A stretch of 64,000 nucleotides of DNA from positions 3,100,001-3,164,000 of the forward strand of contig JAPYYK010000086.1 of assembly GCA_028534125.1 (NCBI GenBank). The letters are read 5' to 3'. A program made the position numbers and the translations under genes. Below the pieces are notes generated by a model that worked only from the letters and a program-made list of their open reading frames with translations, was not told the DNA's origin and did no database searches. Below are positions 46,456 through 53,650 of the stretch, piece after piece. This stretch comes from Lama glama. Lineage: Eukaryota. The stretch's first letter is position 1, and every line of letters starts with the position of its first letter.

Positions 46456-46621
46456 CTGTTTGAAGGCCTGCAGGACCTCCTGCCTCTGGCTGAAGTGTCG
46501 GAAGAGCAGCTGCAGGGCCCCTGACACCAGGGGCGGGTAGTCGTGCATCGTCAAGTGGAGCAGGACCCGGAGGAAGGTCCTGCCGCCGTGATCGTCCAGG
46601 TCCAGAGGGGTGTTCTCCTCA
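46456..46621 (-). CDS. ITPR1: ITPR1 exon EENTPLDL...LQAFKQ
   Basis: 166 nt; ccctcag| acceptor, CAG|gtagct donor; phase 2/0. Confidence 0.95.
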
Positions 46622-47559
46622 CTGAGGGGGCGCGTGGAGGGGAGGGGCCAGGTGAGCCACAGACGACCTCTCTCGTGCCCTCGGCCCACACACACCTCCC
46701 CAGTGAGCTTCCCGACTCCCGCGCCGGCCTCCGACAGCCTGGCTTTTAACTAGCTCCCTCAACAATGCAATCTTGCTTGATCGTCAACTCTATTGTGAGG
46801 GGAAGGGACAGTGTCAAATGGCCACCCAAGGGCCTGAATGCTCACTGTCGTCTTCTGTACTTCTCTTGCCACAACTGGTAGCAAGCAGTTCGACCCCAGA
46901 GACCCCCGCTTTGAGGACGGTTGCCACAAACCATCACAACCCAGTGCTCTTTGAACTGGGGTTAATCAGTATATTGCCAGGGCTTCTCTCAGTATCTATC
47001 ATAACGTGACTGTGTGTTATTTACACAATTACAAAATTAATAAGCAGGCTCTGGATCACAGGGCAGGTCGCCACGCACCTGAGCACTGCCACGTAGTTCC
47101 TGTGTCTGCGCCTCTATTGTGTTTACGCTAGAATGAAGGTCAAAGGGAGACCCCTGTGGCTGCAGACTAGCAAGGAAAGCACAGACAGGACTTAGCACCT
47201 GCATCCTCTGTGCTCCATGCTGTGTGAAGCTGCTTCCACTGCTGCTCTACATTAGGAAGGCGGTGGGAGAGCTGAGACACTACAAGGTGGACGAAGTGTC
47301 ACCGTGCCGAACTCAAAACACCCTGAGCTTCAGAACCACCACCTCTTCCATCAGAGTAAGTGACGCTGCTAGTTCAAGTTTCACAGCTTTTCCATTAAGC
47401 ACCGAGGTATACTGTTAACATCAGTCGCCCCCAGTCAACTGGGCCGTCTGGTCTAGGCTCTCGGCCAGGCGAGTTGCTTTGACCAATAGGACATCAGCAA
47501 CATGATGCAAGCAAAGGCTTCATTTGTGTTTGCACATGGCTGGTCTCTCTTCTCGGGGC

Positions 47560-47860
47560 CTTTGTCCTTAGAGCCAGTCACCACACTATACAGATGGCCA
47601 AGGTATTTGTGTGCAGAAAGCGAGAGGTTCAGGCCTTACGGATATCCCCACCAAGGAGCCAGAAATGTGAGGACAGCATCTTGGATGCGTCAGCCCCAGT
47701 CACTGGCTCGCTAGAGTCACACATGATAGACTCCACGGTGACCAGAAGAACCATCCAGCTGAGCCCCAGTCAACCCACAGAACCATGAGAGGCAACCAAA
47801 TGACTGTCATTTTAATCCATTAGGTTTTGTGAGTATGTGACACAGCAACAGACAGTGAAC
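47560..47860. mobile_element. MaLR (MLT1-like) LTR fragment
   Basis: ccagctgagccccagtcaacccacagaaccatgaga; similar to the 3' part of the 29095 element. Confidence 0.45.
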
Positions 47861-48255
47861 CAAGTGTGAACCTTCCAAGAGTTATGCGCACAGGGCGTTT
47901 CTCCCAAGTCTGCAGCTGTTTGAGGCGTATAGGTATTTGAGTCTCACAACAACGTTTTGAGTCAACACTGAGCAATCTCACCTCTTAGGAGTTCAAACGT
48001 TAATCTCACGTTAGGGACAATGAAAGAACAGAGTGTGTGCCTGTGTGTGTGCGTGTGCATGTGCTTGTTGGTGCTGAATGGCTTCTAAAAGCCTCAGGGG
48101 TAACTGCAGCCCAACAGCAGCAAAGTACAGAATCTTGTGAATTCCACTGTTTTGAGCCCCTTCTTTCTTTCAATCCTATTTCCTCACCATTTAAAAAAGT
48201 CTTGCAATATGCGTACTTTGGGAAACCTCCCTAAATCCTTTCTCTTGTAGGCAAA

Positions 48256-48303
48256 ACACACACACACACACACACACGCATGTGCGCACACGCACATACA
48301 CAT
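48256..48303. repeat. (CA)n microsatellite with imperfect extension
   Basis: Directly visible. Confidence 0.85.
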
Positions 48304-48484
48304 CAAACCAACTAAGATCTCTCCGACCCGAGCAGTAAGAGTTATAAAGGCAGCAGGCACACAACCTAAACGCAAAGCCTCACCCTTTCCTAGTCCAGTC
48401 AAGGAGGAGCCTTTGAGAGCTAGGAAAGAGGAGATTCCCCAGTCTGAGAACCACCTACAAAATAGGAACTGAAAATATACTTTC

Positions 48485-48539
48485 CTTCCTCCAAAGATGC
48501 CCTCGGCTTGCTCTTCAATGTGCTCGAAGTCAAGAGCAC
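48485..48539 (-). CDS. ITPR1: ITPR1 exon ALDFEHIEEQAEGIFGG(S); non-canonical GA donor, or a GT donor extending the exon to 48470
   Basis: 55 nt; tttgcag| acceptor. The GIFGGSEENT junction requires AG|gaaagt. The GT alternative CA|gttcct gives GIFGGRKVYFHEENT. Confidence 0.9.
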
Positions 48540-52621: not shown

Positions 52622-53650
52622 CTGGGAAGGGCCAGGGCAAAGCCCGGTCATGACAGATCTCCAGGGAGTGCGCCAGGGCCAGGGGCACGGGCCCTTCGGG
52701 ACAAATTACCTAACACAACTCCTCTAAAACATCCTAAGACCCTGGGAACCTGCAAAGGTTGATACCTATCAAAAATGTGGGGCCTCAGGGAGTAGGGGAG
52801 AGAGCTCTGAAATCCCCAAAGAAGCATTTTTGTTCGTTAATTCTCCCGCCAAATTTTACTTGTTGCTGTGCACAGAACTAGGGATACAGGAGTTAACAAG
52901 TCACACATCTAGGGCTGCTCCCAGCAACCACTGGATCTTGAGTACATTGTGTTCCCTCTGAGGGTCAGTTTCTTCACCTATAAAGTGAAAATAATGAAGC
53001 CCAAAGACAGGATTAGGTGGTAAAATGCACATGAAATGACTAAGCAAAAAAGGGCCTAGCAGGTGGAGGCATGTAAGTCAGCATACTTCTTCTGTTCTAG
53101 CTGTGGAGACCAGCTAGACAGTCATCCGCACGTGAGTCCCTAGTACGTGTCTACTCTGACCCCAAAGCGGGGGGAAAATAAACATTTAAAAGCAGATTTT
53201 CCTATTCCCAAATTAGAAAGAGGATACCCAGACACAGCCTGGATTTCACTGACTCACACACTAACATAAACATGGAGGACCTCAGGACACATCAAGAACA
53301 GTGAAGGGACATGTATTTTTGAGACATAAGCCTTCAAGCCGTCAGGGAATTTTCAAGCGGTTTGGCAAAATATACAGACTCACAGGTAAATATAAAGAAC
53401 ATGGTAAGATGTTAAGAATCACTGCCTCTAGGTTGTGGGTCTATGGGTGCTGAATCTACCGTTCTTTCTGCTTTTATTTATATTTGAAAACGTTCACAAG
53501 GAAAAGTCAAGAGGGACAGGACAGAGCAAGGACAGCACGTCACTTGGTAAGGAGGACCCGGGCGGTGAGAGGAGAGGCTGGGGGAGCATGTCCGGGACGT
53601 GCGGGCATCAGCAGACCCCCCCCCCCGCAGCTTCTCCACGTCGCCCTCAC

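Follow-up and report, generated by a model that had tools for sequence, protein, structure and literature searches.

The GA-AG intron of ITPR1 and its probable removal by the major spliceosome at a non-canonical donor

The window, by which we mean the whole 64,000-nt stretch of DNA analysed here, carries on its minus strand a GA-AG phase-2 intron of ITPR1 (46622..48484, 1863 nt). It begins with GA where almost every intron begins with GT. This intron is real, rare and already published, and it is not new. We place at about 90% the probability that it is the known ITPR1 GA-AG intron, which the ordinary major spliceosome would excise from nearly all transcripts with its 5′ cut at AG|GA; use of the junction has been shown in human and is predicted here. 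The sequence-only reading had taken GA to be the working donor of a U2-like GA-AG intron, and this appears well founded given the GG-S-EENT sequence of ITPR1 proteins in the PDB, the human junction and a 9/11 match of the donor to U1.

Gene identity and the splice junction

As judged from its sequence, the window contains part of ITPR1. By tblastn of ITPR1 proteins about two dozen exons were placed along the minus strand, and the exon downstream of the intron is identical at 55/55 residues to the ITPR1 chains in the PDB. Separate ITPR2-like (81%) and ITPR3-like (75%) loci are present in the same genome. The identity of the exons and the closeness of the read-through peptides point to a mammalian sequence. 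The sequence-only reading had also named the gene as ITPR1, in agreement with the identity of its exons to the solved chains. Elsewhere in the gene, the exon ending near 53650 (minus strand) continues in frame as GDVEKLRGG to a possible second GT at about 53623, and we take this segment to resemble the short alternative ITPR1 segment called SIII.

Upstream of the intron lies a 55-nt coding exon (48485..48539, minus strand) made up of ALDFEHIEEQAEGIFGG and 2 nt of a split Ser codon, with a purine-rich 3′ end. It ends in GGA GGA AG, its final base being 48485, and is followed directly by GAAAGTATATTTTCAGTTCC; the minus strand thus reads GGA GGA AG, then GAAAGTATATTTTCA, then GTTCCT, and the GA occupies 48484-48483. 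At the other end of the intron, a pyrimidine tract and CAG acceptor (46622..46645) precede the next coding exon (46456..46621), whose first base, 46621, supplies the T of the split Ser codon in cag|T GAG GAG AAC. The genomic sequence as assembled has the two ends of a U2-type GA-AG intron, with GA in positions +1/+2 and AG closing the intron. A 2-nt AG repeat would permit the junction to slide leftward to GG..CA or AG..TC ends, and on direct reading GA..AG is better than either.

Four GT dinucleotides lie downstream of the GA on the minus strand: at 48480 (+5/+6, 48479..48480, within the U1 match), 48469 (+16, 48468..48469, TCA|GTTCCT), 48458 and 48454 (+31, 48453..48454, TAG|GTGGTT), the last two of which were absent from the sequence-only reading. 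When the junctions were translated in silico, donor GA 48484 gave GG-S-EENT, and GT 48469 gave GG-RKVYFH-EENT, which is in frame and five amino acids longer. GT 48454 is in frame with 10 added amino acids, and GT 48458 is out of frame. Joined to acceptor 46621, GT 48480 gives GG-RK-stop; shifting the acceptor by 4 nt, to 46617, brings it into frame and gives GG-RK-ENT with no change in length. Rereading of the sequence and these translations reproduced the coordinates and products given in the sequence-only reading for the 48484, 48480 and 48469 junctions, including the immediate stop from AAA|GTATAT (48480).

All six distinct ITPR1 sequences in the PDB run from GG-S directly into EENT (e.g. 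S1044, E1045), and this requires the GA cut. The paralogs in the same genome have ordinary GT donors here, GGAAG|GTACGG in ITPR2 and GTAGG|GTGAGG in ITPR3, and in both of them the split codon aligns gaplessly with the Ser that the GA cut produces.

The text of Parada et al. (2014; PMC4176328) describes a human ITPR1 GA-AG junction (hg19 chr3:4723102-4725069), classed as U2 and supported by 2210 reads (1121 + 676 + 413), 5 cDNAs, 2 ESTs, 14 tissues and RT-PCR/Sanger sequencing; the sequence-only reading had mentioned a non-canonical donor noted for human ITPR1, correctly. There the GT-AG alternative is treated as a misalignment with three mismatches, and the Sanger-sequenced cDNA follows the GA-AG path (PMC4176328). 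The same TGAG with three mismatches is found here, GAAA against TGAG giving the RK-ENT model, and the human forward primer matches the exon upstream at 49245-49222 in 23/24 letters (compared by eye), so we regard the two introns as the same. They share the gene, the intron, the GA donor, the TGAG exon start and the 4-nt-shift misannotation trap, and differ in species and in length (1967 nt in human vs 1863 nt here), with use of the junction in the present case a prediction. In the TOGA2 preprint (bioRxiv 10.64898/2026.06.30.735536), too, ITPR1 "intron 24" is described as a GA-AG intron of non-canonical U2 type, which U12DB had at one time placed among the U12 introns. Among the literature matches listed (the best 20 of 83, and 20 of 22, from sources other than subscription journals), the intron is named only in these two papers, and none of the matches listed addresses its origin or function.

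Recognition of the GA donor

The GA 5′ splice site (−3 to +8, AAG|GAAAGTAT, 48477..48487, minus strand) was compared with the complement of the U1 5′ end taken from this genome, of which the standard form is present in 26 of 30 top-scoring U1 loci (42 of about 38,500 candidates were scored). Nine of its 11 positions match, with mismatches only at −3 and +2. The sequence-only reading had called the site a U1 consensus match except for A at +2, and this description holds against the genome's own U1; +7A and +8T, an extension which that reading did not include, match as well. No other GA on the minus strand of the window, out of 4012, reaches 9/11, and this score is attained by 1 of the gene's 24 approximate GT/GC donors (2 of the 24 are probably mis-picked). 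At −7.8 kcal/mol, the U1 duplex energy computed for the GA site falls within the middle range of donors in this gene and is not the best. GT 48469, with 5/11 matches and −1.2 kcal/mol, is the weakest of the nearby GT candidates, those at 48480 (6 matches, −4.2 kcal/mol), 48458 (5 matches and 3 wobbles, −6.2 kcal/mol) and 48454 (6 matches and 3 wobbles, −5.8 kcal/mol) all being stronger.

The end of the 55-nt exon ranks 4/24 in purine content and is tied first with two others in GAR count, and the stretch from +9 to +40 (48445..48476, minus strand) is 50% T, rank 2 among the 24 donors, which makes it a candidate intronic enhancer. This composition, a purine-rich exon end followed by a T-rich intron start, is compatible with help from enhancers. 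We propose that standard U1 would bind over the single +2 mismatch through −2, −1, +1 and +3 to +8, with the extended match at +7 and +8 aiding its binding; the predicted pairing of the flanking bases with standard U1 would be good enough for the A at +2 to be tolerated. The exon end and intron start may act as the enhancers, and the major spliceosome would then cut at +1, while the nearby GT sites would lose, being weak, out of frame or not conserved.

A close experimental parallel exists. Erkelenz et al. (2018; PMC6280755) rank donors as GC > TT > AT > GA > GG > CT, and a GA donor in their reporter, CAG|NNAAGTAT, differs from the ITPR1 site at −3 only. In that work the donor was strictly enhancer-dependent: an SRSF7 enhancer placed upstream led to cutting at +1, and once TIA1 sites had been added and both enhancers were present, +5 was cut as well. 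The reporter is an artificial construct, and the enhancers of the ITPR1 exon are candidates by composition; ITPR1 is absent from the main text and the 11 searched supplements of PMC6280755. By analogy with the enhancer dependence and +5 cutting of the reporter, some out-of-frame ITPR1 product may be made.

The GA-AG introns of FGFR1-3 (Twigg 1998; Brackenridge 2003; as cited in PMC4176328, PMC6280755 and PMC7072748) are also similar in having a conserved GA donor in a U2-type intron of a vertebrate signalling gene. However, the GA of FGFR is an alternative site whose use is reported there to require a GT lying 6 nt upstream, whereas that of ITPR1 appears to be the main site and has its GT at +5. 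No GT of the FGFR type lies 6 nt upstream of the ITPR1 GA, the 55-nt exon having no GT past its first two bases.

Conservation of A at +2 and public gene models

A scan of metagenome contigs yielded three loci (L018, L019 and L020). L019, whose exon sequence appears amniote-like, has an identical 11-mer, AAG|GAAAGTAT, and reads CT at the position of the window's +16 GT. L018 and L020, whose exon sequence appears fish-like, have GGAAG|GTAAT and introns of about 95 nt. We also collected 32 proteins that read through the donor (29 matches from one search and 3 from another); they begin with RK in 22/32 cases and with RKV in 18/32, counts which show variety and not frequency, as the query contains the read-through peptide and there are many isoforms per species. 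An RKV read-through implies A at +2 and GT at +5/+6, and the RKV-bearing models are named from mammals, birds, turtles, crocodile and lizards. Fish read-throughs begin RY or RC, which decode as T at +2.

The GA position is thus conserved in orthologues (the L019 DNA and the amniote RKV models) and homologous in position in the paralogs. Conservation of +2A across vertebrates, a point raised by the sequence-only reading, holds in part: A is present in the L019 DNA and implied in the amniote models, and T is found in the fish-like loci and the fish read-throughs. The corresponding donor is GT in ITPR2, ITPR3 and both fish-like loci, so that GA is probably a derived state of amniotes; its most likely origin is from GT, in the amniote ancestor or earlier. 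An ancestral GT donor would have changed from T to A at its second base before the diversification of amniotes, and the A would have been retained since. The GT-GG intron of BANP (Parada et al. 2014, Fig. 2A; PMC4176328), as described there, is likewise non-canonical at one end in most vertebrates and canonical in fish, but it concerns an alternative 3′ site, and in ITPR1 it is the 5′ site that differs.

Other bases may occur at +2. Peromyscus models (P0210-P0218) and P0127 read RQV after GG, which implies C at +2, that is, a GC donor. The frog model P0139 reads RDV after GG, which may reflect G at +2 or a mis-spliced model.

Retention of GA since the base of the amniotes could be viewed as a selected brake, in which slow enhancer-dependent removal, or a switch to the +5 GT with its stop, would tune ITPR1 dosage by cell type; this regulatory role is conjectural and we consider it unlikely. 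If it were true, lineages in which +2 is not A, such as deer mice with their implied GC, would be natural experiments. ITPR1 is a dosage-sensitive ataxia gene, and a demonstration that GA is selected as a regulator of ITPR1 level would bear on this. Apart from any such role, a natural and efficiently used +2T>A donor could be useful in calibrating clinical judgement of +2 variants.

The main lesson of the intron is one of annotation: it is a trap for aligners and gene predictors, and in many of the public ITPR1 proteins of amniotes its junction is wrong or doubtful. Among named entries, an S junction occurs in 3/19 amniote, 1/4 amphibian and 28/31 fish models, so that 16/19 amniote models lack it vs 3/31 fish; clades were assigned from entry names, in a set limited to 2000 aa in which partial models are plentiful and species recur. 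Another search, whose query carried an insertion and so favoured insertions, gave 1447 matches; its counts too show variety and not frequency, and the 120 listed comprise 36 with +6 aa, 26 RK-ENT, 25 with +10 aa, 9 with +2 aa, 7 with +5 aa (1/7 exactly RKVYFH), 9 S (all fish) and 8 others. Within one mammalian cluster, 11 of the 15 RefSeq models listed read S and 4 read RK-ENT, and Logan proteins that join both exons read S in 4/4 cases, with a fifth reading through a short intron. The sequence-only reading had expected predictors to pick the GT form; they do stumble at this site, but the commonest wrong model named by this comparison is RK-ENT, a form that the sequence-only reading did not include, more frequent than the +5 aa form (26 vs 7 among the 120 matches listed) and including two old human predictions. 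Inserted lengths differ by lineage (0, +2, +5, +6, +10 aa and more), which is better explained as a fallback by the predictors than as a second, conserved isoform.

Many isoforms have +6 aa in turtle models and +10 aa in ground-squirrel models (P0149-P0169, P0172-P0178, P0185-P0203), and +6 or +10 aa are also carried by some bird RefSeq-type models, again in many isoforms. Judging from these models, a downstream donor could really be used in turtles, birds or squirrels; alternatively, they could be systematically misannotated.

Alternative explanations of the junction

The sequence-only reading had the GA in competition with the GT 15 nt downstream, which would yield the +5 aa RKVYFH isoform in some tissues. 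This GT is in frame, RKVYFH-EENT is found in two muntjac gene models, with related +5 forms in one bat and one duck model, and a figure on human ITPR1 labels a 12-read GT-AG junction near the 2210-read GA-AG junction, at a position not readable from the text (PMC4176328). Against this stand the U1 pairing of GT 48469, lower than that of the three other nearby GTs, and the scarcity of the +5 aa form, which occurs in 0/6 PDB sequences, 0/4 Logan proteins joining both exons, 0/15 sampled RefSeq mammal models and 7 of the 120 matches listed in the insertion-biased search. Nor do we find a conserved pair of alternative 5′ splice sites 15 nt apart, as the second donor is absent in L019 and insert length varies by lineage. 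The claim of competition is thus not upheld: the downstream GT is probably not used, and a regulated choice between the two sites seems quite improbable. A different shift, in which the true intron is a canonical GT-AG intron with both ends moved 4 nt (AAA|GT ... TGAG|GAG) to give GG-RK-ENT, has in its favour that it is in frame, canonical at its ends and neutral in length, and that RK-ENT stood out as the commonest non-S form named above (26 of the 120 listed, and 4/15 sampled RefSeq models). The PDB sequences, however, have S-E and never R-K, the paralogs put the cut at the GA position, and this path is the very three-mismatch misalignment from which the Sanger-sequenced human cDNA departs (PMC4176328); we hold it to be very improbable, and the RK-ENT product of acceptor 46617 to be false.

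Recognition by special machinery, whether a U1 variant that compensates for the mismatch or the minor (U12) spliceosome, appears no more probable than the 4-nt shift. The U12-type 5′ consensus is RTATCCTT, and the donor here reads GAAAGTAT, whose GAAAGT is a U2-type pattern. Although U12DB once classed the intron as U12, as the legend in the TOGA2 preprint states, both that preprint and PMC4176328 class it as U2. For GA-rich genomes a U1 variant has been put forward (Frey and Pucker 2020; PMC7072748), but of the 30 top-scoring U1 loci here, 29 have a readable 5′ end and 0/29 carry the compensating change at position 7. One U1-like copy, L044 (G000:C17:16801289-16801452), a possible pseudogene, has T replacing C at position 8, the type of variant treated in PMC7072748, which would not repair the +2 mismatch. 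Least probable of all is that A at +2 is an assembly error for an ordinary GT. The base is known here from the assembly alone, and the scaffold carries an evident artefact, but the same A is present in human (PMC4176328) and in L019, and RK read-through implies it in 22 of the 32 proteins from the biased query. The artefact is that the contig (G000:C916804, 4.53 Mb) is an inverted duplicate of itself about a central 100-N gap, so that the ITPR1 region appears twice; mirror tests over 5001, 3000 and 2801 nt gave 0 mismatches each, and the inverted duplication is likely due to scaffolding. We therefore rejected the second exact ITPR1 copy, with 0 mismatches over 5001 nt in a mirrored contig, as independent support for A at +2. 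Some of the U1 matches elsewhere, on other contigs, are also paired as mirrors.
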